A program made the position numbers and the translations under genes. From contig NZ_ATXB01000002.1 in assembly GCF_000421465.1 (NCBI RefSeq), positions 276,690 to 300,689 of the forward strand: a stretch of DNA of 24,000 nt. Reading direction: 5' to 3'. Below the pieces are notes generated by a model that searched no databases, was not told the origin of the DNA, and worked only from the letters and a program-made list of their open reading frames with translations. Shown here piece after piece: positions 4,323 through 20,535 of the stretch (its first letter is position 1; every line of letters starts with the position of its first letter). This DNA is from Methylohalobius crimeensis 10Ki (GTDB taxonomy: Bacteria > Pseudomonadota > Gammaproteobacteria > Methylococcales > Methylothermaceae).

Positions 4323-5748
4323 CATATGCGCCAACTTAAGCGCACAAGTGGTTGAAATTTGGAGGAAGTGACGGCAAGTTACAGGCTTTTTTCAACCGCC
4401 AAGTCGAAGGAGCCTGCCATGTCGCCACTTCCGAACAGTGTTGATATCTCATTTGGGCGTTTTCTGCAAGAACTGCCTTCAGGCTATGAGGAGATGGCCT
4501 ATGAATTTCGCGCTTTTGCCCGGGGGCGCAAGATCCGCACCCCATCGGAATTGCTGCAGGTGGTGCTGCTCTATTGTGGTTTGGATTTGAGTCTGAGGGG
4601 GACGGCGGGACACCTGACGATGGGCCATGCCCGGATGACCGACACGGCGATCCATCGACGCTTGAAGGCCTGCGGTCCGTGGCTGAAGGCGATGGTTCAG
4701 CATTTGTATGGCGGGCGATCGGCGTCATTGGTTCCGGGCCACTTGCGCTTTGTGGCCATCGATGGGAGTACGGTCCAAGCCCCCGGAGCGGAAGGGATCA
4801 GTTACCGACTGCACCTAGCGATGGACCTGGTGGAGATGACCTTGGTGCATGCGGAGGTCAGCGATGCCCATTGCGGGGAAGGGCTTCCACATTTTCCCCT
4901 GCAGGCGGGCGATGTGGCGGTGCTGGATCGCGGCTACAATCAACCCGCCTCGCTGATTGCGGCGGCCGAGGCGGGGATCGGTTGGGTGGTGCGCCATAAT
5001 CCTCACGGCATGAACCTTTATGACGACCGGATGCGGAAAGTGGACCTCCATGGCTGGTTGAAACGTCGACAAACGCCCGCCCATCGCTTGGTCCGCGTGG
5101 CCGACCGAGCCCGAGGTCACTACACGGGGGCGGTGCTCCACGCCATTCCCTTGCCCCCCGCCGAAGCGGCCAAGGCCCGCCAGAAACTTCGTCGTCAGGC
5201 AAAAAAAAGGCTATACCCCGTCTCGGCGGGCGTTCCATCTGGCCGGCTGGGTTCTGATCGTCACCACCGTGCCAGTTGCCGTACTGGATACCGAAACCGT
5301 GGGCGAACTCTACCGGGTGCGCTGGCAAGTCGAACTGACTATCAAACGCCTCAAAAGCCTGCTCGATCTGGACAAGCTGCGCGCGCAGGCAGGGGGTGCC
5401 CTGGCGGAAGTCTACCTCTATGGCAAACTGCTCTATACCTGGGTGTTGGAAAAGATCGCCGCCCGACGATTTGGCCCGCACTGGACCCGGCTCGACCAAC
5501 CACGAGCGGGGACGTGGTGGCGACTGTGGGCGATGCTCAAGCAAGCCTTGGCGATCGCCATTCAAGCGGTGGATCGTTGGCGGACGGAAAACTTCGAGGC
5601 TTGCCGGCAAGTCATGAGGGAACGTTCCCGTCGGAGAAAACTGCAAACACTGCCCGATCCGGTGATCCAGCTATTGGAATGGTGTAGAGAAAAAGGTTTA
5701 AGCAATACCTGATCTATCAACAACTTGCAGCTTAAGTTGGCGCTTATG
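4323..5748 (+). mobile_element. IS4-family insertion sequence (1426 bp)
   Basis: The terminal inverted repeats are CATATGCGCCAACTTAAGC (left) and CATAAGCGCCAACTTAAGC (reverse complement of the right end), matching at 18 of 19 positions. An 11-bp direct repeat AGGCGAAGGGG flanks the element at 4312-4322 and 5749-5759. It carries a single DDE transposase gene. Confidence 0.9.
4419..5712 (+). pseudogene. IS4-family DDE transposase, reading frame broken at an A8 tract
   Basis: The N-terminal part (MSPLPNSVDISFGRFLQELP...QKLRRQAKK) is in one frame. The C-terminal part (...LAGWVLIVTTVPVAVLDTETVGELYRVRWQVELTIKRLKS..., a YREK-type motif) is in the +1 frame. The switch is at AAAAAAAA, 5201-5208, and A7 would restore a single ORF. 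GGAG lies upstream of the ATG at 4419. Confidence 0.8.
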
Positions 5749-5923
5749 AGGCGAAGGGGTCAGTGAGTTGCGCATTCATTACGGCCCCGGTTATCGAGTC
5801 TATTTCCAGCAACACGGTAATACCCTGATCCTCTTATTGTGTGGTGGAGATAAGCAGTCGCAAAGCCGGGATATCGCCGCCGCAAAGAAAATCGCCAAAG
5901 AATGGAGTGCTCGAAATGGCTGA
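5749..5923 (+). pseudogene. 3' fragment of the same killer gene
   Basis: From 5750 the sequence reads [57 protein letters not shown]. Removing the IS and one target-duplication copy joins this in frame to the 4181 fragment, giving a product of about 100 aa. Confidence 0.85.
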
Positions 5924-6236
5924 AAAATTTACTAAATTCGATCCGGCCGCCATGTTGGAAACCGACGAGGACATCGCCATTTTCATGGCCGATGCTTTGG
6001 AAACCGGAAATGCATCCTATATTGCAAAAGCGCTTGGTGTCGTGGCTCGTGCCAAAGGTATGACAGAAATAGCGAGAAAAACCGGCCTATCCCGGGAGCA
6101 GCTCTATCGTTCCTTCAGCGAGGAAGGCAATCCCACCTTGAAAACCACCATTGCCGTGATGCGGGCGCTTGGCGTGGATTTGTCGGCCAAAGTCCATGAA
6201 AGTGAAAAAGAAGCCGAAACCAACGATACGGTTTGA
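5916..6236 (+). CDS. Addiction-module antidote protein (HTH, TIGR02684-like), intact
   Basis: [87 protein letters not shown]. The ATG at 5916 overlaps the killer stop (ATGGCTGA). Confidence 0.85.
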
Positions 6237-6256
6237 TATTATTCGCAAAGCCGCTA

Positions 6257-6571
6257 TTATTTGCACGTTTGCATCGGATCGAGTTTTTCCGGAGCGAGAC
6301 GGTAGCCTAAAGAATGCATGATTGCATTGATGTTCTCCAAACGCGGATTTCCTTTTTCGGATAGCGCTTTTTGCAAGCCTTGGCGGGTCATGCCTGCTTC
6401 TTCTGCCATCCCTGAAATGCCTTTTGCCCGGCTGATGATCCGCAAAGCGGACAGCAAGACCCCAATGTTCTGATCTTTGGCGTATTCCTCAAATGTAATT
6501 TTGAGGAATGCATCAATTTCTTCGGGGTGGTCGCGGTAGTAATCCGCTGCGGCGTCGCTGAATTTACGCAT
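6257..6571 (-). CDS. Addiction-module antidote protein (second, paralogous copy)
   Basis: ...LSALRIISRAKGISGMAEEAGMTRQGLQKALSEKGNPRLENINAIMHSLGYRL has the same architecture as the 5916 product. It overlaps the upstream killer gene by 8 nt. Confidence 0.85.
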   Translation of the reverse strand: MRKFSDAAADYYRDHPEEIDAFLKITFEEYAKDQNIGVLLSALRIISRAKGISGMAEEAGMTRQGLQKALSEKGNPRLENINAIMHSLGYRLAPEKLDPMQTCK

Positions 6572-6902
6572 GATTTTTGTACACTTTCCAATAACTCTTG
6601 GCTATTTCAATATCCTGTGACTGGCTGCTTTTATCTCCGCCACACAGGAGAACCACAATGTTGTCCTTATCCTCCCCGAAATAAATGCGGTATCCGGAGC
6701 CGAAAAACAGGCGCAATTCGAAACCCCCTTCACCGAGTGCTTTCCAATCACCGCAATTTCCCTGCTCCAACCTGAGTAACCGCAATTCAATCCGTTTTCG
6801 GGTCTGTTTGTCTTTTAGACCGTACAACCAGTCCATAAATGGTTCATTTCCCTGGTCATCGGCATAGATGATGATCTCTTTCGGGGCGGCCGCTTGTGCC
6901 AT
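6564..6902 (-). CDS. Addiction-module killer protein (RelE/ParE superfamily), intact paralogue
   Basis: ...FMDWLYGLKDKQTRKRIELRLLRLEQGNCGDWKALGEGGFELRLFFGSGYRIYFGEDKDNIVVLLCGGDKSSQSQDIEIAKSYW is collinear with the disrupted killer. The ATG at 6902 has GGAGG 8 nt upstream and is preferred over the ATG at 6917. Confidence 0.85.
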   Translation of the reverse strand: MAQAAAPKEIIIYADDQGNEPFMDWLYGLKDKQTRKRIELRLLRLEQGNCGDWKALGEGGFELRLFFGSGYRIYFGEDKDNIVVLLCGGDKSSQSQDIEIAKSYWKVYKNHA

Positions 6903-6951
6903 ATTTTCAACCTCCATGTTTTACAAATTTCCTTCCTTACAAAGATATCAG

Positions 6952-6980: not shown

Positions 6981-7340
6981 TTAATCGGACGAAGCCCGAT
7001 ACGCCATTTTCGGGGAACGGCCGATCCTCGAAACGCTTTTCCCGCCGTCGGGGCGGGTCCAAGACCCCCGAAGGTGCGGTTCCCAATCGGGCCATTCCCC
7101 CAGGGCCGCCGCGCAGGCTCGGGCGGTGCGCCAATAATGATAACGGGTGCCGGGGGCCAGATCCGCCAAACCATGCTCGAGCGCCCATCGCAAATGCTTG
7201 GCCCGCCATTGCCGGGGGTGCGTTACGCCGTAACGCGACTCGATGAGGGTTCTCAATTGCTCGCCCCGGCGGATATGCCGCTCGACCCCGCCCCGGCTTC
7301 CCGGCTGGGCGCGTTCCAGTAGTCTCCTTATATGACTCAT
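6981..7340 (-). CDS. Hypothetical protein, translationally coupled to the recombinase gene
   Basis: 119-aa ORF. Its ATG at 7340 overlaps the recombinase stop (ATGA). No family was recognised. Confidence 0.55.
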   Translation of the reverse strand: MSHIRRLLERAQPGSRGGVERHIRRGEQLRTLIESRYGVTHPRQWRAKHLRWALEHGLADLAPGTRYHYWRTARACAAALGEWPDWEPHLRGSWTRPDGGKSVSRIGRSPKMAYRASSD

Positions 7341-8287
7341 CTCGACGACCCCAAATAGGCGACGGTCACGTCGGTTCGGCCGTGACCCAATTCGTGTGCT
7401 ATAACTTGTCGGGCCTGGCGGTCGGCATCCTTGCCGGCAGTCCTCCGGCCTGCCACCACCGGCGCCTCACGGCCTGTCATCTGTTTGTAGCGCTCGCAGG
7501 CGTAGCCCGCCCGGGCGTCGTGATAACCGCGCAGGCCGAATTCGTGTAGGCGGTCGCGGCCCTCGCGCAACTCCCCGTGGAGCCAAATGGCATAGTTCTC
7601 ACCGGGAGCGATGAGGTTGCGCCTTTCGGATCCCGGCGGGCGCACCTTCAGGGCGAACGCCAGGGCCTTGCGTCCTTCTTCGGTTACCGGCACCCAACGG
7701 GGGGCACCGCGGCCGCCCTTGGTCCCTTCCTGAACGTTGATTTTGCCGTATCGTTCGGCCTCCTTGGCCCACCGGGTGAGATCCGCCAAGGTGGCTTCCT
7801 TGCTCCGGACCCCAAACTCGCGGGCGAGCGCCAAGGCCGCCGCGGCACGATCCAGCCCCGCCTCGCGCAGCGAATCGCGGGCTTGTCCGTAGGTGTGGCG
7901 GTCCAGGGAGACCGGCGCTTCCTGGCGCACCTGGGAGCGCGCGGCGCCGGCAAGCGCCCTCGGACTGACGCACTCCCAACGGCCCTCGCGCGCATGCCGC
8001 ATGACGACGTTGACGGTACTGATCCGGTTCTGAACGGTCGGGGCGGCCAGATCCTGCGTCCGAAGATAAGCGGCGTAGCGCTCGACCAGATCCCGGTCCA
8101 CCTTGCGCATGTCGCGAATGCCCTGGGTCTTCAGCCAATTGTCGAACAGGCGCCAGCGCTCGGCGTGGGACTGGACGGACCCGAAATGGCCACCGCCGAA
8201 CCGGTCAATCAGAACCTGGCGGCCGGCCCAGGCCACCCGCTTTCCCCAACCGTGATTGCGCCTTTCGATCCCTCCAAATTTTCCCAT
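7337..8287 (-). CDS. Tyrosine-recombinase-fold protein (plasmid-type integrase domain protein)
   Basis: 316 aa. Candidate catalytic residues in the expected order are R in FGVRSKEA, H-x-x-R in GYHDARAGYA, and H...Y in HELGHGRTDVTVAYLG. Confidence 0.7.
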   Translation of the reverse strand: MGKFGGIERRNHGWGKRVAWAGRQVLIDRFGGGHFGSVQSHAERWRLFDNWLKTQGIRDMRKVDRDLVERYAAYLRTQDLAAPTVQNRISTVNVVMRHAREGRWECVSPRALAGAARSQVRQEAPVSLDRHTYGQARDSLREAGLDRAAAALALAREFGVRSKEATLADLTRWAKEAERYGKINVQEGTKGGRGAPRWVPVTEEGRKALAFALKVRPPGSERRNLIAPGENYAIWLHGELREGRDRLHEFGLRGYHDARAGYACERYKQMTGREAPVVAGRRTAGKDADRQARQVIAHELGHGRTDVTVAYLGSSR

Positions 8288-8289
8288 CT

Positions 8290-8559
8290 TTATCGATCGT
8301 TGCTGCGTAACAGGTAATAATCCTCCAGTTCCGGTTCCGGCAGCGCATCCGAAACCCGCTCGTCCTCGGCCTCGATCACCCTTTCGAGCATGGCCCGTTT
8401 CGTTACGCCGTAATGCTTGGCCAGGCGGTTCAATGCGTGCCAGGCCGATTCGCCGACGAACAGATTGATCCGGCGCTCACCGCCCCTGCCCGCGACCCGC
8501 TTATCCCGGTACCGCCGCTGCCGTTCAGCGTCGCTCAATGCCATGATCCTGTTCTCCAT
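8290..8559 (-). CDS. Small DNA-binding regulator, probably ribbon-helix-helix
   Basis: 89 aa. LSDAERQRRYRDKR... is followed by RINLFVGESAWHALNRLAKHYGVTKRAMLERVIE, a strand-helix-helix pattern. The gene ends 2 nt before the recombinase start. GTT-N7-AAC sites lie at both ends of the gene. Confidence 0.6.
   Translation of the reverse strand: MENRIMALSDAERQRRYRDKRVAGRGGERRINLFVGESAWHALNRLAKHYGVTKRAMLERVIEAEDERVSDALPEPELEDYYLLRSNDR
8299..8311. repeat. GTT-N7-AAC motif copy 1 (GTTGCTGCGTAAC)
   Basis: Lies in the last codons of the regulator gene, 12 nt before the recombinase ATG. Confidence 0.6.
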
Positions 8560-8564
8560 CGTTC

Positions 8565-8577
8565 GTTACTGCGTAAC
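8565..8577. repeat. GTT-N7-AAC motif copy 2 (GTTACTGCGTAAC; internal 5-3-5 palindrome)
   Basis: Lies 6 nt upstream of the regulator start codon (8559), which is the position expected for an autoregulatory operator. Confidence 0.6.
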
Positions 8578-9154
8578 ATAACTTAGCATCGTACTGCCGG
8601 AACGTGAAATCCCCAACGACCCCGCCTGGAACGGTGAATATTAATATAGAGTTTAAAGGCACTCTACCGAGCCTATGGGGACGATGCCGTCTCGCCGCAT
8701 CGGGCGGTCCCTACGGTCCGGGACTCGGACAATGCCGATCGCCACTGACGCCTGGCGGAAGCGGATCCCTCCATTCCGGGATCTGGAAACATCAGCAATT
8801 TTTACAGCGTACCGCGATCTCAAATCCTCGAAAGGACGGCGGGGGATCGCTGCGGACCGGCCGTCCGCGGGTATCGCCGTTTCTCCGGCAGACAGATTGC
8901 CGGGTATTGGTATCGCGCGCGCTGAGCCATGCCTGCCGGAAGATGCCGCTTCCGGTGACCGTCCCTGGCCGCCTGGCCCGACCGGTGACGCCCCTACAGT
9001 CCGGAGCCGGACGTGTCGGTTGCGCGCGAAAAATGGCCGCCCTTTCTTCTGGAAAGGGGTTTTAGTGTGAGTTTTGACCCGACTTTTGAACCACGCCGAT
9101 AGCACGGCCTTCCCCTCGATACCGCTTGGTACGGGGGTTGCCGGGTCGCCTGCG

Positions 9155-9198
9155 GCGCCCGTCTCTGTCGCGAGCGGAGCGAGCACAGAGACGGGCGC
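9155..9198. repeat. 14-bp perfect inverted repeat with a 16-nt spacer
   Basis: GCGCCCGTCTCTGT (9155-9168) pairs with ACAGAGACGGGCGC (9185-9198). Confidence 0.9.
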
Positions 9199-9223
9199 GT
9201 GCTGGTCGATTCGGTTCCCGCTC

Positions 9224-9425
9224 GGATGTTTCTCCGCAACATCCTCGCAGTGCCGATGGTCCGCCTGTTCCTTCGTAACAGGCTGTTGCGGCAGCGCCTT
9301 GCCCGCCGTTTCTCCGCAACGATCGGGCGGCGGCGGTTTGCCGTTGGTTGAGGTGGATTCCGCTCAAGCGTTCCTCCGTAACGCTCTCGCCGTGCCATTG
9401 GATCGGCCGTTGCTACGTAACGGCC
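9224..9425. repeat. Array of five phased GTT-N7-AAC hairpin repeats
   Basis: The 13-nt motif starts at 9228, 9267, 9308, 9370 and 9409, giving spacings of 39, 41, 62 and 39 bp. The consensus is GTTNCTNCGYAAC. Four copies extend to 6-7-bp stems whose outer bases differ but stay complementary: GGATGTT/AACATCC, GCCTGTT/AACAGGC, AGCGTT/AACGCT and GGCCGTT/AACGGCC. A degenerate copy lies at 8879-8891. Confidence 0.8.
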
Positions 9426-9839
9426 TGAAGAGGAAACACCTTGTTCGCCATTTCGGCGTAAACGCGCCTTGTCTCGATTCCGGGAGGAAATCGAGGGATG
9501 GCCGGCTTCTTCCGCCGGCAATGCCCTGTCAAGGGGATGGCTAGGGCGGTGGGTTTCGGTCTTTTGACCGGTATGGCCAGTCGAGGCGGAGCCCCGGAAG
9601 GGCCTGTGTTGATAGATACCCGCGTTCGGAACCGAGGATCCGGCCGCAGGAAAGTGCGGGTTGCGCTGCGGCTATGGGTCCGCGAGGTTTAATGAGGCGC
9701 GGGCCTCATGGGGTTCCCGCTTTTTATAGAGGCGGGAGGCCTCCTGGGTTCCGACTTTGCCCAAGTCGGCAGGGTTACGCACCACAAATTATGTTTACCC
9801 AGGCTCGGGGTTGTCAACCTGGATCACCGAAAACCGCTT

Positions 9840-10040
9840 AAGACGTACTTTTATTGAATATTAGTTCAATACATATCGCCAGTAATATCAGAAAGGAACG
9901 AGTAATTCTATTTCTGAAAAATTAAAAAACATGTTAATTCAAGTAATATTCAATAATTGTGAGTTAAAATATCTTGTTGCAGTGATCATTAAGTTGATAT
10001 CCGGGAAATATGTTTTATAATTCAACTTATATGCAACTAA
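9840..10040. promoter_or_regulatory. AT-rich repeat region upstream of the parM-like gene; candidate parC-type centromere/promoter
   Basis: There is an abrupt switch to AT-rich sequence. The 12-bp inverted repeat TTATTGAATATT (9851-9862) pairs with AATATTCAATAA (9945-9956). AGTAAT occurs at 9881, 9901 and 9942, and WTTCAA motifs recur. Confidence 0.45.
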
Positions 10041-10059
10041 AGTGCAGACAGGAGTATTT

Positions 10060-11040
10060 ATGTTCGTTTTCGGTCTGGATATCGGTTATTCGAATCTGAA
10101 GCTGTGCTTCGGAGAGACAGGAGAAACCCCCAAAACCGCCATACATCCCGCAGGAGCGGCACCCGCCGAACGGCTCCCCGGCAATATCAGACCGGGTTCC
10201 GGAAACGAAGGGTTCAGGGTCCAGGTCAACGGCAAATCATGGGCAGCGGGCATACATCCCAGCCGTTTCGAGATATGGGAACGGTCGTTGCATCCGGACT
10301 ACAGCCATACCGATTCCTACAAGGCGCTGTTTTACACGGCCCTGATCATGGGGGAACGGGACGAAATCGATCTGCTCGTCACTGGATTGCCGGTCACTCA
10401 GTTCGACGAAAAACGCGAATCACTGACCGGGGAAATGCAAGGAGAACACACCGTTGCCGGAAAACGCACGGTCAAAATCAAACGCGTGGAGATCGTCCCC
10501 CAACCCGTCGGCGGTTTCATGGACGCCTTGGCAAACGCCGACGCGGACACCACCGAAATGCTGGCCGAAGGCCGTGTCCTGGTGGTCGATCCCGGTCACT
10601 TCTCATTCGATTGGGTGCTGATCAACGGATCGGCTCTCCAAAAACAATCCAGTGGTTCCAGCACCGAGGCTATGTCCGCGGTCTTGGAGACAGCCGCGGC
10701 CGAAATCAGCGACGACTATGGCGGGCGGATCGAGCCAGACCGAATTGAACAGGCGTTGCAGCAAGGAAAGAATCACGTACTCCTGTTCGGGAAAAAAGTG
10801 GACTTTGCCCCCTATCTGGACCAGGCATCCCGGGAGGTATCCCTGGTCGCCATCGAAAAACTCAGAACGGCCATGCGCAAGGAAGTCGAATCCATCGACG
10901 CGGTGATCGTCCCCGGCGGTGGCGCCAAATGGTGGGTGCCGATCACCAAGGAGCTTTTCCCCGAATCCCGTGTGATATCACCGGACGAACCGATATTGGC
11001 CAACGCCAGGGGATTCTTCGAATTGGGAGCCTCCGGCTGA
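10060..11040 (+). CDS. parM: ParM/StbA-family actin-like segregation ATPase
   Basis: 326 aa with actin-fold motifs in order: FGLDIGYSNLKL, LVTGLPV, VEIVPQPVGG, VLVVDPGHFSFDW, VIVPGGGAKWW, ILANARGFF. GGAG lies 5 nt before the ATG at 10060. Confidence 0.85.
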   Translation: MFVFGLDIGYSNLKLCFGETGETPKTAIHPAGAAPAERLPGNIRPGSGNEGFRVQVNGKSWAAGIHPSRFEIWERSLHPDYSHTDSYKALFYTALIMGERDEIDLLVTGLPVTQFDEKRESLTGEMQGEHTVAGKRTVKIKRVEIVPQPVGGFMDALANADADTTEMLAEGRVLVVDPGHFSFDWVLINGSALQKQSSGSSTEAMSAVLETAAAEISDDYGGRIEPDRIEQALQQGKNHVLLFGKKVDFAPYLDQASREVSLVAIEKLRTAMRKEVESIDAVIVPGGGAKWWVPITKELFPESRVISPDEPILANARGFFELGASG

Positions 11041-11306
11041 TGTCGAAAAAACTTAGAATCACCCTGTTTATCGATGAGGATTCGATGCCGGAACTGTACC
11101 AGGAGTTGGTGAACATCCCGCCCAGGGCCCGGGCGGTACGCTGCCGGAATCTGGCGATGAGCGGGCTGCTGTTGGTCCGGGGGAACATTCCCCTGGTCAG
11201 GGAATCCCCTAAAATGGAATTGGAGGATGATATGGAAGAGGAACGATCGGCCAAGCGTGAAAAAATGCGAAAAACAGTTAAAAAACTGCTCTCTTCGACT
11301 GATTAG
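11040..11306 (+). CDS. Small ParR-like adaptor candidate (RHH-like N-terminus, charged tail)
   Basis: The ATG at 11040 overlaps the parM stop (TGATG). The 88-aa product has KKLRITLFIDEDSMPELYQELVNIPPRARAVRCRNLAMSGLLL followed by an acidic/basic tail. The assignment is by position and shape only. Confidence 0.5.
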   Translation: MSKKLRITLFIDEDSMPELYQELVNIPPRARAVRCRNLAMSGLLLVRGNIPLVRESPKMELEDDMEEERSAKREKMRKTVKKLLSSTD

Positions 11307-11611: not shown

Positions 11612-13522
11612 ATGACTGATAAGCAACCCATCAACCCTCTCGACATTCTTCTGCAACTCGACTGGGCAGAGGGCGACGACTTAGAGTTTAAATCCGCCAA
11701 AGGCGGACTGCCTAAAAGTCTGTGGGAGACATACAGTGCCATGGCTAATGCCCATGGCGGGGTAATTTTGCTTGGGGTGGAAGACGACGGCCGAGTCAGC
11801 GGCGTGCATGAGCCGCGCAAACTCAAAAAGTCTTTCTGGGATACGGTCAACAATCGAGGCAAGGTCAGCCTCAATCTGTGTACCGATACCGATCTCGCCG
11901 AGGTAACGCACCCGGGTGGCCTGATACTCGCCATTCGTATTCCACAGGCGACGCGTTACCAGCGCCCGATTTTCCTGGGTCAGAACCCACTAACCGGCAC
12001 CTATCGACGCAATTACGAGGGCGACTACCGCTGTACCCCACAGGAAGTCGGCCGGATGCTATCCGACCAAGCCGAGGAGCCGGCAGACAGCCGGATACTG
12101 GAAGGCTTCGAGATGGAGGATCTCGATCTGCCCAGCCTACACCAGTACCGCCAGCGTCTCGCTTCCCATAAACCAACCCACCCTTGGCTGAGCGAGGACG
12201 ATGTAAACTTGCTCGCAAAGCTCGGTGGTTGGCGGCGCGACCGCAAAACCGGCACAGAAGGGTTAACGGTGGCTGGCTTGCTGATGTTCGGCCGCGACGA
12301 GACCTTGCGTGAAGGCGTACCCGGTTACCATGTGGACTACCGTGAACGGCTGTCTGATGATCCCGCCGAGCGGTGGAGCGACCGACTCACTGTCGATGGC
12401 ACTTGGCAGCCCAATCTATTCCAGTTCTACCTGCGAGTAGCACAGCGCCTGGTCGCTGACCTGAAACTCCCTTTCCAGCTTGATGCCGACCTCTTCCGCA
12501 AGGGGGAAACTGAAGTCCACGAGGCAATCCGCGAGGCCTTGGTAAACGCCCTGATTCACGCCGATTACAAAGGCCAAGGTGGTATCGTAGTAGAAAAATT
12601 CCGTGACGCCTTCGAGTTTTCAAACCCTGGGACCCTGCTTATCTCGTTTGATCAGCTGCTGCAAGGCAATGTCAGCGAATGTCGCAACAAGGCACTGCAA
12701 ATCATGTTCATGCTAATAGGCGCAGCCGAAAAGGCTGGCTCCGGAGTGGACAAAATGCGTAAAGGTTGGGCCTCGCAGCATTGGCGATCGCCGATGGTCC
12801 GAGAGCAAGTACAGCCAGAGCGAGTGACTTGGCGATTGCCGATGGTCAGCCTGATCCCCGACGAATCTCTGACTCGGCTCGAAGGTGTTTTCGGCAGAAA
12901 ATTCAACCAGTTCAGTCCAAACGAAGTCCAGGCGCTGGTGACCGCCGATGTCGAAGGGACTGTCGACAACTCGCGGATGCGCCAGATCTGCACCATCCAC
13001 GCAGCGGACGTGACTCGTTTGCTCCAGGGATTGGTGGCCAAAGGCGCCCTGGTACAGGAGGGGCAAGGACGGTGGAGCCGCTACCGCCTGCCAGAACCCG
13101 TTCCCTCCGTACATAAGACTGGGAGCTCCGTACATAAGACTGGGAGCTCCGTACATAAGACTGGGAGCTCCGTACATAAGACTGGGAGCTCCGTACATAA
13201 GACTGCAGACTCCGTACATAGTGAAAAACTAAGACTGATCGCCCAGCCAGCAAGAGACCAGCAGCGTTTGCAACCTGATGCAATGGAAAGAATCATTCTC
13301 GAACTTTGCCGGGGACGATGGTTAACCCGAAATCAGCTTTCAGAGCTAGTGGATCGCCACGCCGATGGCCTACGTTCACGCTTTCTGACTCCCATGGTCG
13401 CACATGGACGCTTGCGGCTGCGATATCCTGATAAACCTAACCGTGCCGATCAGGCCTACACTTCCGATGAAGGGGTTAGAGAAAATGCCGTTTCATCAAC
13501 CAAACAAGCCGGTCACCATTGA
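11612..13522 (+). CDS. AlbA_2 (divergent AAA-4) / HATPase_c_4-type putative DNA-binding regulator (COG2865-like)
   Basis: 636 aa. The N-terminus reads EGDDLEFKSAKGGLPKSLWETYSAMANAHGGVILLGVEDDGRVSGV. The middle reads HEAIREALVNALIHADY...NPG...RNKALQIMFMLIGAAEKAGSGVDKM. The C-terminus is winged-helix-like. Confidence 0.8.
   Translation: MTDKQPINPLDILLQLDWAEGDDLEFKSAKGGLPKSLWETYSAMANAHGGVILLGVEDDGRVSGVHEPRKLKKSFWDTVNNRGKVSLNLCTDTDLAEVTHPGGLILAIRIPQATRYQRPIFLGQNPLTGTYRRNYEGDYRCTPQEVGRMLSDQAEEPADSRILEGFEMEDLDLPSLHQYRQRLASHKPTHPWLSEDDVNLLAKLGGWRRDRKTGTEGLTVAGLLMFGRDETLREGVPGYHVDYRERLSDDPAERWSDRLTVDGTWQPNLFQFYLRVAQRLVADLKLPFQLDADLFRKGETEVHEAIREALVNALIHADYKGQGGIVVEKFRDAFEFSNPGTLLISFDQLLQGNVSECRNKALQIMFMLIGAAEKAGSGVDKMRKGWASQHWRSPMVREQVQPERVTWRLPMVSLIPDESLTRLEGVFGRKFNQFSPNEVQALVTADVEGTVDNSRMRQICTIHAADVTRLLQGLVAKGALVQEGQGRWSRYRLPEPVPSVHKTGSSVHKTGSSVHKTGSSVHKTGSSVHKTADSVHSEKLRLIAQPARDQQRLQPDAMERIILELCRGRWLTRNQLSELVDRHADGLRSRFLTPMVAHGRLRLRYPDKPNRADQAYTSDEGVRENAVSSTKQAGHH
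13105..13220. repeat. 21-bp tandem repeat, about 5.5 copies, in frame within the AlbA_2 gene
   Basis: The unit is CTCCGTACATAAGACTGGGAG, with four identical copies, a fifth ending GCAGA, and a partial sixth. It encodes five tandem heptapeptide units read as SVHKTGS (the fifth SVHKTAD), followed by a partial SVH. Confidence 0.95.
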
Positions 13523-15161: not shown

Positions 15162-16411
15162 ATGCGAACCCTCGCCAACATCGAGGCATTGCTGCCAGAG
15201 CTGGACCACTGCATAGCAGGCGACTTGGAAGACCAGGACCTCGACTTCAAACAGTGGGACCATACCAGCCACGACAAGGCAATCAGAACCGTCGTGCAGA
15301 TGGGCGTCTGCATGGCCAACGGTGGTGGCGGCACGGTGGTGTTTGGCGTGGCGGATCGCATACAAGGGCGGAGCAAAGCCATCCTGGGCGTACCGCCGGA
15401 AATCGATGTCAACCTGCTTAAAAAAGCGGTGTACGACCAGACGGATCCCAAGATCATGCCGGTGTTCGAAGAGCTGGCGGTACCGGATGGCACCGGCCGC
15501 CTCCTGTTGATGCAAATCTATCCCGGCATGCCCCCCCTATACCGACACCGCAGGCCGGGGCACTATCCGCGTCAGCAAAGACTGTATACCCTTAACCGGC
15601 ACCCTCCGACGCAAGATTGGCGTGGAAACCGGCGAAACCGACTACACCGCAGAGGCGGTCGCCCCTGTGGATAACGCCTTGTTGTCCGCCACCGCACTGG
15701 AAGCCCTGAGTAACCAGGCCCGCAAGGAGCGTGCGCCGGTCGACCTTGCTGCGGCTTTCGGATATCGAGCTCCTATCCACCCTGGAGCTGATCAAACAGG
15801 GCAAGCTCACCCGGGCGGCCATCATGTTGGCCGGCACCGAAGCCGCCATTCGGGAATACCTGCCCGGCCACAACTGGACCTTCCTGCAGATGACCTCCGA
15901 TACCGACTACGGCATCCGAGAAGATCGGGTAAGCGCCCTACCGTTGTCCGTTCAGCGCATTGAAGAACTGTTGGTACCCTTCAACCCCATCACCACCTAC
16001 AAACAGGGCATGTTCCACTACGAATACCGCACCTGGCCGGAAATCGCCGTGCGTGAGGCCCTGATGAGCGCTTTCTGTCATGCCGATCTGCGCATCGCCG
16101 GGCCGGTGATGGTCAAGCTGTATGCTGACCGGCTGGAAATCAGCAACAACGGCGGCTTTATCGCTGGTATTACACCCAACAACATCCTGCACCATCAACC
16201 CGCGGCCAGAAACCCCTTGCTGGTCGAGGCGCTTACCCGCCTGCGCCTGGTTAACCGCAGCAATCTGGGCATCAACCGCATGTTTGCTGCCTTGTTGATG
16301 GAAGGCAAAGAGCCGCCCCAGATCCGGGAAATCGGTGAATCGGTGCAGGTCAGCCAGGCAGGCCACGGCGCGGGTTCGCGCGATTACTGGAAGGCTGACA
16401 GTGATCAATAA
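15162..16411 (+). pseudogene. Second AlbA_2/COG2865-type gene, at least two frameshifts
   Basis: The three pieces are collinear with the family. Piece 1 is LDFKQW...GGGTVVFGVAD...LLLMQIYPGMPP. Piece 2 is YTDTAGRGTIRVSKDCIPLTG...ARKERAPVDL. Piece 3 is LRLSDIELLSTLELIKQGKLTRAAIMLAG...REALMSAFCHADL...NRSNLGINRMF. The first shift is at a C7 run (15531-15537). The second is near 15750 and is not in a homopolymer. Confidence 0.75.
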
Positions 16412-18917: not shown

Positions 18918-19070
18918 CTACCGCTCCAAACAGCAAGTCATCATATAATCATCGTAGTAGTAACCATTTCCCGCATCGCTGATTTCGGCCTTGGCGATGA
19001 TAAAGCCGGCTCGCAGATAGGCGCGGACGGCCTGGCGGTGAAGTGGTTCAATGGATGTGACCAACCCAGT
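18918..19070 (-). pseudogene. Possible C-terminal remnant of a GNAT acetyltransferase
   Basis: The minus-strand frame reads ...IEPLHRQAVRAYLRAGFIIAKAEISDAGNGYYYDDYMM...*, resembling the N-x-x-A-x-x-x-Y-x-x-x-GF end of GNAT proteins. No N-terminal part is present, and the fragment abuts the stop of the TraI_2-like gene. Confidence 0.35.
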
Positions 19071-20155
19071 TAAAGGATAATACGATGAAGGAGAACTTCA
19101 GGATCGATCAATACACCGGCAGACCGTCCTTTCCGACCGCTATCCGCAATTTCAATCCGGTACATGTTGAGACCGTCCGACGTCCGCTGGTGGAGACCAA
19201 GCTTGAGGAAACCTTTTTGCACCTTTTCCCAATCAGGCGCTTCCATCCCGTACGACGCCGCGCACTCTGAAAACTTCCTGAAAATCCCCGGGCTGACCAG
19301 AAGCATCCCTTCGGGAACCATGCGGACGAGCGCATCCGGGGCGTTGCCCTCGAATTCGCCGGATTGAACGCCTTCCGACAACCAAGCCAAAAATCGCCTG
19401 CCCAACTCCTTGTTTGTAATCTTTCCAGATGCAGACACCGCAGATGCCGCCTTTTCAATGGAGCCAGGCGATCGTGAATCGTTCCGATCGTCATTCCCGC
19501 CGGATACCGTGGCGATTCGACCGACATCTTGCCCGGGTTCCGTTTTGGCCGTGACTGTATCGCTAACCGGTTCCGGCGCTGACAGCGGCGGCAGATTCAA
19601 CCGGTGGCAGGCCCTGTCGAGAATTTCCCCCAATACGCCGGCCTCGGATAAATCGCCGCGAACGACGGCGCACCATTGGGCATACGCTTCGCGATCCGAA
19701 GACAGCCAATCGGCGCCCTCCTCACCTAGAATGCGGAAGGCATACTCGTCGGCCGGGGCGGGTTCTCCCGCTTCAATCCAAGCGATTCCGTGTATCACAG
19801 AAGCGCCGAACACCGCATAGGTCCATAGATCACGCCGATGGCCGGCGGTTTCGGGCGGTGCGCCGGGCGGAAGCACGTATCCCAAACGCAGTTTCAGGGC
19901 CGTGGCGGCAACCGTGAGCGTCCGCTCGAGAATATGGCCCGGTTGAATCCTTCGAGCGGCAGAGGAACCTGCCCGACCGTACTCCGCGATCCGCCGCAGC
20001 GGCGGGAGATAATAGCGGTCGAAGTGCTCGGGAGTGGTCCCGACCAACGCCTCGATGCGGTCGATCTGCCGCTGATGGACATGAAGCGGTTCGGCGGACG
20101 AATCGTTGTTGGCACCGACGGGATACTTCACCCTCAATAAACGCAAGCGCTTCAA
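19070..20155 (-). CDS. TraI_2-like protein (MobH-relaxase-related N-domain plus TraI_2_C domain), short, with degenerate HD motifs
   Basis: EHFDRYYLPPLRRIAEYG...ILERTLTVAATALKLRLGYVLPPGAPPE...DLWTYAVFGASVIHGIAW is collinear with the PFGI-1-class relaxase N-domain. The C-terminus FLAWLSEGVQSGEF...MLLVSPGIFRKF...VQKGFLKLGLHQRTSDGLNMYRIEI matches the TraI C-terminal domain. The start is uncertain: TTG at 20155 overlaps the upstream stop, and GTG at 20131 is the alternative. The part of the 468-aa ORF upstream of 20155 is judged spurious. Confidence 0.7.
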   Translation of the reverse strand: MKRLRLLRVKYPVGANNDSSAEPLHVHQRQIDRIEALVGTTPEHFDRYYLPPLRRIAEYGRAGSSAARRIQPGHILERTLTVAATALKLRLGYVLPPGAPPETAGHRRDLWTYAVFGASVIHGIAWIEAGEPAPADEYAFRILGEEGADWLSSDREAYAQWCAVVRGDLSEAGVLGEILDRACHRLNLPPLSAPEPVSDTVTAKTEPGQDVGRIATVSGGNDDRNDSRSPGSIEKAASAVSASGKITNKELGRRFLAWLSEGVQSGEFEGNAPDALVRMVPEGMLLVSPGIFRKFSECAASYGMEAPDWEKVQKGFLKLGLHQRTSDGLNMYRIEIADSGRKGRSAGVLIDPEVLLHRIIL

Positions 20156-20535
20156 TCCAGCACCGTATGGCCACGGTTTTGCATGCAGCGCCGGTACACT
20201 CTTTTGTAGCGTTCCTCGGCACTCAGGCCCTTTCCGATACCACCGCCCATTCCGGCAAGGCCCGCACCCCAGGCCGCTCCCGTTCCCGGTGCGCCCGCCA
20301 GGGCTCCGACCACGGCGCCCGTGGCCGCTCCGAGAGCGCCTCCGACCAAGGCACCCTTGGCGGTTTCCTGGGCCGTCCCGCCAGAAGCTTGGCTTGCCAA
20401 TTGCCGGCATTCGGCCTGATCCTGGTGGATATAGGCGGCTCGCGGATCTCCGTAGGGATCGACGGTAGGCTGCCAATTGCCGTAGCTGGCGCAGCCAGCA
20501 ATGATCAACAGGACTAAAAGCATCAACAAGCGCAT
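20152..20535 (-). CDS. Glycine-zipper lipoprotein
   Basis: MRLLMLLVLLIIAGC is a signal peptide with a lipobox Cys. It is followed by GALVGGALGAATGAVVGALAGAPGTGAAWGAGLAGMGGGIG (glycine zipper). 127 aa from the ATG at 20535. Confidence 0.75.
   Translation of the reverse strand: MRLLMLLVLLIIAGCASYGNWQPTVDPYGDPRAAYIHQDQAECRQLASQASGGTAQETAKGALVGGALGAATGAVVGALAGAPGTGAAWGAGLAGMGGGIGKGLSAEERYKRVYRRCMQNRGHTVLD

Follow-up and report, generated by a model that had tools for sequence, protein, structure and literature searches.

We analysed a 24,000-nt stretch of the Methylohalobius crimeensis 10Ki genome (contig NZ_ATXB01000002.1, positions 276,690 to 300,689; hereafter the window), in which a 13-nt repeat with the pattern GTT-N7-AAC recurs beside a small ribbon-helix-helix (RHH) gene and a tyrosine recombinase gene. 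The window lies inside an integrative and conjugative element (ICE) with a type IV secretion system (T4SS) coupling protein, a DUF4400/DtrJ gene, a TraI_2 relaxase (traI, 19070-20476), toxin-antitoxin pairs and an IS4 element. The results showed that the repeats form two classes with a common half-site, namely predicted operators of the RHH protein and an array of five stem-loops (c1 to c5), which are under structural selection and most likely function in single-stranded form. The features of the locus are as follows.

6981..7340, minus strand: 119-aa open reading frame (ORF) that overlaps the stop codon of the recombinase gene; conserved small companion of Integrase_1 recombinases
7222..7234: GTTACGCCGTAAC, a perfect palindrome within the 119-aa ORF; 13.9 bits with the covariance model (CM) of the array
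7337..8287, minus strand: tyrosine recombinase of 316 aa, Pfam Integrase_1 (PF12835, E 1.3e-10)
8290..8559, minus strand: RHH gene, CopB/RepA2-like repressor; 84 aa from the ATG at 8544 (NCBI start), 89 aa from the ATG at 8559
8299..8311, minus strand: O2, operator-like copy GTTACGCAGCAAC within the final RHH codons, followed 12 nt downstream by the recombinase ATG; folding z-score (z) +0.5; CM 9.8 bits
8402..8414: degenerate internal copy GTTACGCCGTAAT, encoding the conserved HYGVT motif of the RHH protein
8560..9780: hairpin-dense non-coding region holding the array; 15 perfect hairpins (stem of at least 6)
8565..8577, minus strand: O1, predicted operator palindrome GTTAC-GCA-GTAAC, 21 nt upstream of the NCBI start at 8544; z -0.4; CM 11.4 bits
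9059..9089, minus strand: tandem boxes TCAAAA-gtcggg-TCAAAA-ctcacac-TAAAAC, about 65 nt from the big hairpin on its recombinase side
9150..9440, minus strand: two tandem units of about 142 bp, the proximal one (9150-9298) with c2, c1 and the big hairpin, the distal one (9292-9440) with c5, c4 and c3
9155..9198: big hairpin with a perfect 14-bp stem (GCGCCCGTCTCTGT / ACAGAGACGGGCGC), a 16-nt loop and a GTCTCT/AGAGAC core
9222..9246, minus strand: c1 (13-mer 9228-9240), GGATGTT-G-C(GGA)G-A-AACATCC, flank +4 bp; DNA fold -6.6 kcal/mol, z -2.7; CM 35.2 bits
9261..9285, minus strand: c2 (13-mer 9267-9279), GCCTGTT-A-C(GAA)G-G-AACAGGC; z -3.2; CM 32.2 bits
9298..9330, minus strand: c3 (13-mer 9308-9320), bulged, GCCCG-AT-CGTT-GCGGAGA-AACG-G-CGGGC; -8.0 kcal/mol; CM 27.8 bits
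9364..9388, minus strand: c4 (13-mer 9370-9382), AGCGTT-A-C(GGA)G-G-AACGCT; z -2.1; CM 32.6 bits
9403..9427, minus strand: c5 (13-mer 9409-9421), GGCCGTT-A-C(GTA)G-C-AACGGCC; z -3.5; CM 34.7 bits
9788..9817, minus strand: predicted sigma-70-like promoter TTGACA-18-CATAAT (11/12 match), reading into the hairpin region

Exact copies of the repeat, GTTNCTNCGYAAC, occur at seven positions, all in one orientation (8299, 8565, 9228, 9267, 9308, 9370 and 9409). A first-pass annotation, made from the letters of this DNA, had counted eight copies; seven of these are exact and lie where it had placed them, while the eighth is the copy at 8402-8414 within the RHH gene, which carries two mismatches and could be either a coding coincidence or an internal operator. 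The annotation also gave the right coordinates for the copy at 8565-8577, but this copy does not overlap the start of the RHH gene, lying 6 nt upstream of the first ATG (8559). The window contains 12 occurrences of GTT-N7-AAC, a count attained by 0/100 shuffles (expectation 3.8 ± 2.0), and 7 of the 12 are packed into 1.1 kb. The five array copies are spaced at 39, 41, 62 and 39 bp as annotated, and their GTT/AAC dyads are extended by 4, 4, 1, 3 and 4 bp. The flanks that the annotation had described as differing yet complementary (GGAT/ATCC, GCCT/AGGC, AGC/GCT and GGCC/GGCC) were found as such, with extensions of at least 3 bp occurring at about 2% of random positions, and the copy at 9308 has an outer helix (GCCCG/CGGGC) across its bulge. 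The degenerate positions 4, 7 and 10 resemble third codon positions giving LR(R/S)N; however, a protein-coding origin was rejected because the copies lie in different frames (spacings 41 and 62) and indels in the orthologues break the frame.

The orthologous set consisted of four loci, namely the window, L021 (a Methylothermaceae metagenome-assembled genome (MAG), syntenic with the window), and L030 and L031 (from another Methylohalobius MAG), in which the non-coding DNA is 89-92% identical to that of the window. An identity of 92% is by itself uninformative on constraint, because the third-codon identity of the recombinase gene is 88%. As single strands, the five array copies fold at -5 to -9 kcal/mol (z-scores -1.6 to -3.8), thus beating their shuffles, which the two operators (z about 0) do not. 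In an alignment of 15 array sequences, pairing is seen in 93% of the cells versus 80% in shuffles, and the covariation score is 0.45 versus 0.18 in shuffles (0/500), with slid registers reaching 0.15 at most. Double compensatory changes number at least 8 between orthologues and 5 between paralogues, and 6/6 loop substitutions between the window and L021 fall at the degenerate 13-mer positions 4, 7 and 10. Regarding the individual copies, c1 has GGCT/AGCC for GGAT/ATCC in L030 and L031, which is compensatory; c2 reads GCCTGTC..GACAGGC in L021 and GGCCGTC..GACGGCC in L030, amounting to three double compensatory changes that depart from the GTT/AAC consensus yet hold 7 bp, together with a double switch from A.G to G.A at positions 4/10; c3 is remodelled in L030 to CCGGC-G-TTGC-gca-GCAA-GCCGG, still a hairpin; c4 is identical in L021 and L030; and c5 has its GCA centre flipped to TGC in L030. 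These results demonstrate that the array copies are true stem-loops under structural selection. The annotation's suggestion of selection for a folded hairpin is thereby much strengthened, with compensatory changes both among the paralogous copies and across the four orthologous loci.

A covariance model built from the array matches only the array copies and their orthologues (26-35 bits; the five window copies 28-35), and found no match in the other Integrase_1 loci. GTT-N7-AAC itself is absent from the related loci L001-L020, and these two results rule out a motif general to Integrase_1 loci. In addition, blastn of the region against plasmids gave no match, and scans of genome contigs and metagenomes returned few relatives. 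The array is so far restricted to one ICE lineage and is a variant of known mini-hairpin or structured-leader elements. The same model separates the array (28-35 bits) from the operator copies (10-14 bits, E 0.1-1.5), which also fold no better than shuffles; the single family of eight that the annotation had proposed thus divides into RHH operators and array stem-loops with a common half-site. A motif common to a repressor operator and to structural hairpins can mislead towards a one-family reading.

The operator class is best understood from the RHH gene. Its product matches Pfam PF10723 (RepB-RCR_reg; E 9.7e-5, 22.7 bits, cutoff 21) and NCBIfam PRK13702 ('replication regulatory protein RepA'; E 2.7e-5, 24 bits, under the curated cutoff of 87), and NCBI annotates it as 'RepB family protein'; we take these matches to denote the CopB/RepA2 group. 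A palindrome of the form GTTAC-N3-GTAAC precedes the RHH start by 15-60 bp in 6/6 loci (the window, L021, L023, L024, L025 and L026), whose RHH homologues have 43-80% protein identity (43-100% counting the window), and it is kept beside differing neighbour genes, even a P4-type integrase. A second palindrome lies 27-28 bp away in L023 and L026, and a palindrome at the 3' end of the RHH gene is also present in L021 (9998), L023 (1509) and L026 (2603). The operator copies have flank dyads of only 0-2 bp, and their 'GCA' centre stands in the RHH sense orientation in 9/9 cases. Since the palindrome accompanies RHH homologues beside varied neighbours and the RHH protein belongs to a repressor family, O1 and O2 are predicted to be its conserved operator palindrome, in the autoregulatory and next-gene arrangement of the CopB type, and the autoregulatory operators suggested by the annotation are supported for these two copies. 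The RHH protein would repress its own operon (RHH, recombinase and orf119), as CopB does its following gene. Like CopB/RepA2 of IncFII plasmids and CopG-type proteins, it is a small RHH protein of the PF10723/PRK13702 family with one 13-bp dyad upstream of its own gene and another at the junction to the controlled gene; unlike in those systems, the downstream gene encodes a tyrosine recombinase and not a Rep, the Pfam and NCBIfam scores are low, and the 'GCA' centre always points one way, which a purely symmetric operator would not need. The operator is a known kind of element in a new case.

The palindrome at 7222, of operator type (GTTACG(C/G)CGTAAC), is conserved at L021 12453 and at L030 6932 and 8144, sitting in the 119-aa gene 3' of the recombinase with one further occurrence in L030, and may be either coincidental coding sequence or an extra RHH site. 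The copies at 7222 and 8402 would probably serve as further duplex operators of the RHH protein. In L023, an RHH homologue (969-1142, 46% identity) with three operator palindromes lies divergently beside a CsrA-family gene, upstream of the P4-type integrase.

A question raised from these findings is whether the array also belongs to the RHH protein. The orthologous loci are polymorphic for the presence of the RHH gene and both operators: these are absent from L030 and L031, where the leader joins the recombinase ATG directly (window 8288-8562 versus L030 5881-5890), and in L021 an IS605-type tnpB gene (10123-11277) stands between the RHH and recombinase genes. The array with intact hairpins is nevertheless retained in L030 and L031, indicating that it is independent of the RHH gene in cis. 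The covariation that the annotation had proposed to look for in related elements persists in L021, L030 and L031, and a centromere or iteron array for the RHH protein, one of the roles it had offered, is unlikely as the primary role. Iterons or a partition centromere would be near-identical direct repeats to which an adjacent Rep or Par adaptor binds, but no Rep gene is adjacent, and the array stems differ between copies while staying complementary. The array does not behave as a set of RHH operators, because it is retained where the RHH gene is absent, its flanks covary and the covariance model separates the two classes.

We further considered whether the five copies might be degenerate RHH operators, each with a strong half-site (GTTRCG) and a weak one, that form a duplex accessory array beside a recombinase core site, with hairpins as a secondary effect. 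The operator half-site is indeed common to the array, and c5 is its most operator-like copy, the L021 version (GATACGCAGTAAC) being 1 nt off the operator. Furthermore, the copies lie in one orientation over about 200 bp, 26 bp from the recombinase-linked GTCTCT/AGAGAC palindrome; the Aeromonas plasmid pAeme4, with a RepB-type RHH gene, carries an array of 33-bp repeats (4-5 in tandem, 1055-1219) at a distance of about 105 bp from the GTCTCT hairpin; and Integrase_1 genes occur on ColE1-type plasmids needing dimer resolution. The closest analogy is to the accessory repeats of multimer-resolution sites (crs/rsd, cer and the Tn4430 IRS), which likewise comprise about 200 bp of same-orientation repeats by a palindromic site and a tyrosine recombinase gene within plasmid or ICE maintenance modules. 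Those repeats, however, are duplex protein-binding sites without covarying stems, and the putative core here has a variable arm spacing, with half-sites 7-22 nt apart across loci, a misfit for a fixed-spacer duplex core. Nor can a duplex array account for the complementary flanks, the G.A/A.G covariation at positions 4/10 or the symmetric T-A to C-G changes in GTT/AAC, and it explains neither the intact hairpins where the RHH gene is absent nor the 11 other hairpins of the region that have no common motif. We therefore regard this explanation as improbable.

The array also carries a signature that distinguishes the two strands. On the minus strand, positions 4/10 of the 15 copies are G.A in seven, A.G in four, a Watson-Crick pair in three and A.C in one, and never A.A or G.G; the C5-G9 pair is invariant (15/15) and closes a GNA triloop (GGA, GAA, GCA or GTA) in 14/15. 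On the plus strand, positions 4/10 would be pyrimidine-pyrimidine mismatches. The C(GNA)G signature is thus strand-specific, and its strand is the sense strand of the recombinase operon. Although the annotation did not recognise the motif from any described system, the core C-GNA-G is the described 'mini-hairpin DNA' motif, d(GCGNAGC) (PMC13037366, PMC3201870), which shows extraordinary stability in DNA and a lower one in RNA and is poorly bound by single-stranded DNA-binding protein (SSB) (PMC13037366), with a stability that depends on the closing pair (PMC3201870). Natural mini-hairpins are found in G4-type complementary-strand origins, in the single-strand initiation (ssi) signal ssiA of IncQ plasmids (CCGAAGG) and in the single-stranded DNA (ssDNA) promoters of the N4 virion RNA polymerase (GCGGAGC) (PMC13037366). 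The array resembles these initiation signals in its C-G-closed G-N-A triloop, which is confined to one strand and caps stems of 5-9 bp, and in its location on a mobile element with a single-stranded phase; it differs from them in the G.A/A.G pair between cap and stem and in comprising five copies in a duplicated unit versus one or two. The likeness is one of motif definition, and no cognate primase or polymerase was identified for the array.

Two further explanations are judged by this signature. In one, both strands would be transcribed into a cis-antisense RNA pair with kissing 7-nt loops, in the style of ColE1 RNAI/RNAII or R1 CopA/CopT, controlling the recombinase operon together with the CopB-like RHH protein. 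Stems that are Watson-Crick only and fold on both strands, the CopB-like RHH protein itself and a terminator-like site on the plus strand (9040-9058) are in keeping with such a pair; but no plus-strand promoter was predicted in the region, the G.A/GNA signature turns into Y.Y mismatches on the other strand, and inspection of the loops by eye showed no consistent YUNR, making this very improbable. In the other, minus-strand loops presenting GGA would titrate a CsrA-family protein as a CsrA/Rsm sponge. The loops ACGGAGG and GCGGAGA do carry GGA, c4 fits at 9/10 positions what we take to be the CsrA consensus (WCANGGANGW), and an RHH homologue lies beside a CsrA gene in L023. On the contrary, the middle position of GGA varies freely, GGA is lost in c1 of L021 and in c2, c3 and c5 of L030, c5 has no GGA in any locus, the Rfam Csr/Rsm families gave no match and the annotated window ORFs include no CsrA gene; the variability of GGA effectively refutes the sponge.

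The architecture of the region gives additional information about how the array arose. The two units align without gaps at an offset of 142, with 65/99 positions identical against a background of 25.9 ± 5.1, showing a tandem duplication in which c5 is the paralogue of c2 (2 double compensatory changes) and c4 that of c1 (3), while c3 occupies the place in its unit that the big hairpin (9155-9198) has in the other, the outer stem GCCCG/CGGGC being common to both. The spacing of 39-41 bp results from this duplication, and the 'phased array' of the annotation does not necessarily reflect helical phasing. Moreover, the array makes up only some of the roughly 16 hairpins present here, and the 11 others have no common motif: the 1.22-kb region contains 15 perfect hairpins versus 2.6 ± 1.6 in 200 shuffles, an enrichment of about 6-fold, and the flanking genes contain 0. 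Several non-array hairpins also show compensatory changes, such as GCGGAC/GTCCGC to GCGGAT/ATCCGC at 8852-8868 and GTCCT/AGGAT to GGCCC/GGGCT near 8825. A sigma-70-like site (TTGACA-18-GAAAAT) equivalent to the predicted promoter at 9788-9817 is present in L021; in L030, the distal promoter part is missing and no promoter was predicted. Just downstream of this predicted distal promoter, 9690-9775 on the minus strand holds two tandem units of about 33 nt, each with a GAGGC..GCCTC hairpin, then TA(A)AAA and then GGGAACCC, which are partly conserved in L021.

This arrangement raises the alternative of a structured 5' leader RNA, in which about 9780 to 8560 would be transcribed as a leader of about 1.2 kb for the (RHH-)recombinase-orf119 operon, and the stem-loops, including the five GNA-capped ones, would act in stability, processing, attenuation or protein binding. 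It agrees with the promoter-like sites reading into the region in the window and L021, with the lack of any gene between promoter and operon, with a recombinase ATG that abuts the leader in L030 and L031, with G.A pairs and GNA loops on the mRNA-sense strand, and with compensatory evolution across many unrelated hairpins. In addition, radC RNA (Rfam RF01754), a four-hairpin cis-regulatory candidate, occurs in L002 (2608-2740, a P. putida plasmid) and L005 (3549-3691, a P. simiae island) at about 95 nt on the upstream side of the GTCTCT hairpin, directly before the same succession of GTCTCT hairpin, boxes and Integrase_1 gene, and so takes the position held by the array in the window. It is likewise a conserved multi-hairpin non-coding element on mobile elements; however, it has no match in the window at E <= 10, and its hairpins lack GTT/AAC and C(GNA)G. 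In both L002 and L005, a YfjI (DUF3987) gene precedes the recombinase gene, and further features of the P. simiae island are a tmRNA gene and a C4 antisense RNA. Rfam searches as a whole gave no match at E <= 1 (8000-10200) and only chance-level matches at E <= 10 (8500-9900). Against a leader RNA also stand the near absence of G.U pairs in the stems with no minus-strand excess, the markedly greater stability of C(GNA)G in DNA than in RNA (PMC13037366), the missing distal promoter part in L030, and the failure to find terminators or attenuator-like U-tracts on the minus strand. Compensatory changes across homologues, the general hallmark of a structured RNA, are present, but ssDNA would give the same pattern and both strands satisfy it. 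Overall, we judge the leader RNA to be the main rival, somewhat less likely than a function as ssDNA.

The big hairpin, in contrast to the array, is widespread. The recombinase is a member of the Integrase_1 family with catalytic residues (R161, K190, H256, R259, H302 and Y311) that are invariant in 19 homologues, and an ORF of 95-177 aa follows the recombinase gene in all related loci; the 119-aa ORF had no family match in the family searches of the window proteins. A GTCTCT/AGAGAC hairpin was found upstream of Integrase_1 in L001-L006, L009, L012, L014, L017, L021, L030 and L031, and the GTCTCT core is present in all related loci of sufficient length. The outer stems are perfectly paired and covary between loci, and the loops measure 3-16 nt. 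Two tandem boxes of about 12 bp (e.g. CGTCAAAAC twice) lie 55-75 nt downstream of the hairpin and keep this relative position across 10 related loci. This succession is conserved although the recombinases have no more than 35-60% identity, and it occurs on ICEs and on plasmids of ColE1, IncQ and other types, making the hairpin and boxes a candidate cis site of the Integrase_1 family. As far as could be found in the literature searched, the module is undescribed, and publications on PF12835, pFNL10 and radC RNA held no functional information on the family. The 16-nt loop of the window (9169-9184) is, with one mismatch, the reverse complement of that in L021 (9101-9116), L030 and L031. Small inversions are associated with hairpins, and such changes are expected if the sequences fold as DNA hairpins; the differences in this loop and in the c5 centre are hairpin-loop inversions. 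A role of the big hairpin as an intrinsic terminator was excluded, as a T-tract is absent on both strands. The recombinase was also considered as a replication initiator of Rep-less Aeromonas plasmids; it is not a Rep, because these plasmids carry RNAI (L003 3900-4000, L027 3075-3176 and L029 7361-7464; small Aeromonas plasmids of MOB-suite rep_cluster_2037) and are hence ColE1-type replicons. The rep_cluster_2037 plasmids carry a trio of Integrase_1, small ORF and RepB-RHH genes.

The combination of folded repeats and a tyrosine recombinase recalls integron attC sites and the folded attP of the CTX phage, which also have conserved stem sequence, covarying stem positions, variable loops and an adjacent tyrosine recombinase, and the GTT/AAC triplets are reminiscent of GTTRRRY/RYYYAAC. 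However, the order in the array is GTT...AAC and not AAC...GTT, the recombinase is of the Integrase_1 family and not IntI or XerCD, and no extrahelical bases or cassettes were seen in the array. Whereas attC sites have a bipartite stem of R and L boxes, extrahelical bases and a length of roughly 57-141 nt, the array stem-loops have about 21 nt with stems of 4-7 bp; order and size thus rule out attC-like sites. A more speculative and rather doubtful proposal is that Integrase_1 recombinases act on the GTCTCT hairpin as folded ssDNA and that the ICE added C(GNA)G arrays and a stem-recognising RHH protein to fold, prime or regulate this substrate. If true, integron attC and CTX-phage/XerCD would be joined by a third independent system of tyrosine recombination on ssDNA hairpins.

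Taken together, we favour the reading, at a probability of about 40%, that the array works as ssDNA, providing ssi-like or SSB-free landmarks or organisers of the recombinase hairpin in the single-stranded phase of the ICE. The five copies would be selected to fold on the minus strand, each with a covarying stem of 4-7 bp that includes GTT/AAC, a G.A or A.G pair, and an invariant C-G pair closing a G-N-A triloop, and the caps correspond to the hyperstable, SSB-excluding mini-hairpin DNA motif. Pairs of such stem-loops precede a GCCCG-stemmed hairpin, the whole 142-bp unit having been duplicated, and the proximal unit bears the GTCTCT hairpin, the conserved candidate cis element of Integrase_1 recombinases. 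The array and the surrounding region of about 16 hairpins would act during conjugative transfer or rolling-circle replication, where folded SSB-free landmarks could serve as priming (ssi-like) signals or keep the recombinase hairpin folded, and the RHH protein could bind operator-like copies, especially c5. The T4SS coupling protein and TraI_2 relaxase of the ICE favour this reading. The array thus most likely functions single-stranded, ssDNA being somewhat likelier than a leader RNA, and its exact role is inferred.

Several points weigh against the ssDNA reading. The region is only presumed to function as ssDNA, with the minus strand as the transferred or lagging-template strand; an origin of transfer (oriT) was not located, and no primase gene was identified in the window. 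The promoter-like sites of the window and L021 read into the region and the folding strand is mRNA-sense, with which an RNA leader fits equally well, and C-G-closed GNA triloops occur in RNA too. Almost all stem pairs are Watson-Crick, and the two strands fold about equally well; the G.U asymmetry tests over the whole region showed either no clear direction or a slight lean to the plus strand. Only three independent lineages, diverged by about 10%, underlie the comparison, L030 and L031 being nearly identical, and an RHH protein could be encoded elsewhere in the L030 element. The data fit ssDNA and RNA alike.

Beyond the hairpin region, the plus strand carries a ParM-like gene with a small partner (ParMR). 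The AT-rich stretch upstream of it (9820-10040) contains inverted and direct repeats (9851-9870/9937-9956 and 9935-9953/10018-10036) and a sigma-70-like promoter (9994-10021), and is a probable parC. The ParMR genes of the window and L021 are unrelated in sequence (63% nucleotide identity), which points to a swapped module with a boundary at about 9780. The array as the parC of this neighbour was rejected, as ParMR has its own AT-rich repeats (9851-10036) and was exchanged between the window and L021 while the array was conserved. Elsewhere in the window, 11612-13522 encodes a 636-aa SLFN/AlbA_2 and HATPase_c_4 protein with a tandem peptide repeat (KTGSSVH, 4-5 times) near residue 520, and 15162-16411 a second, split SLFN/HATPase_c_4 pair. 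The IS4-family transposase frame at 4359-5712 is split across overlapping ORFs (4359-5687 and 5269-5712), probably a frameshifted or degenerate insertion sequence, and two HigB/HigA-like toxin-antitoxin pairs, one with a truncated toxin, flank this frame at 5768-6917. In L021, a HEARO RNA (RF02033, 97.8 bits; 12747-12991, minus strand), a member of the IscB-associated omega-RNA family, separates the 119-aa gene from a PIN/PhdYeFM pair; no ORF for IscB is called there.

Integrase_1 recombinases are catalytically intact in their residues, widespread and uncharacterised, and the linked candidate cis site makes their function directly testable. If the ssDNA reading is true, the array would clearly exemplify, in nature, mini-hairpin DNA signals that evolution has maintained in a conjugative element, and would open a way to study how the single-stranded phase of ICEs is organised or primed.

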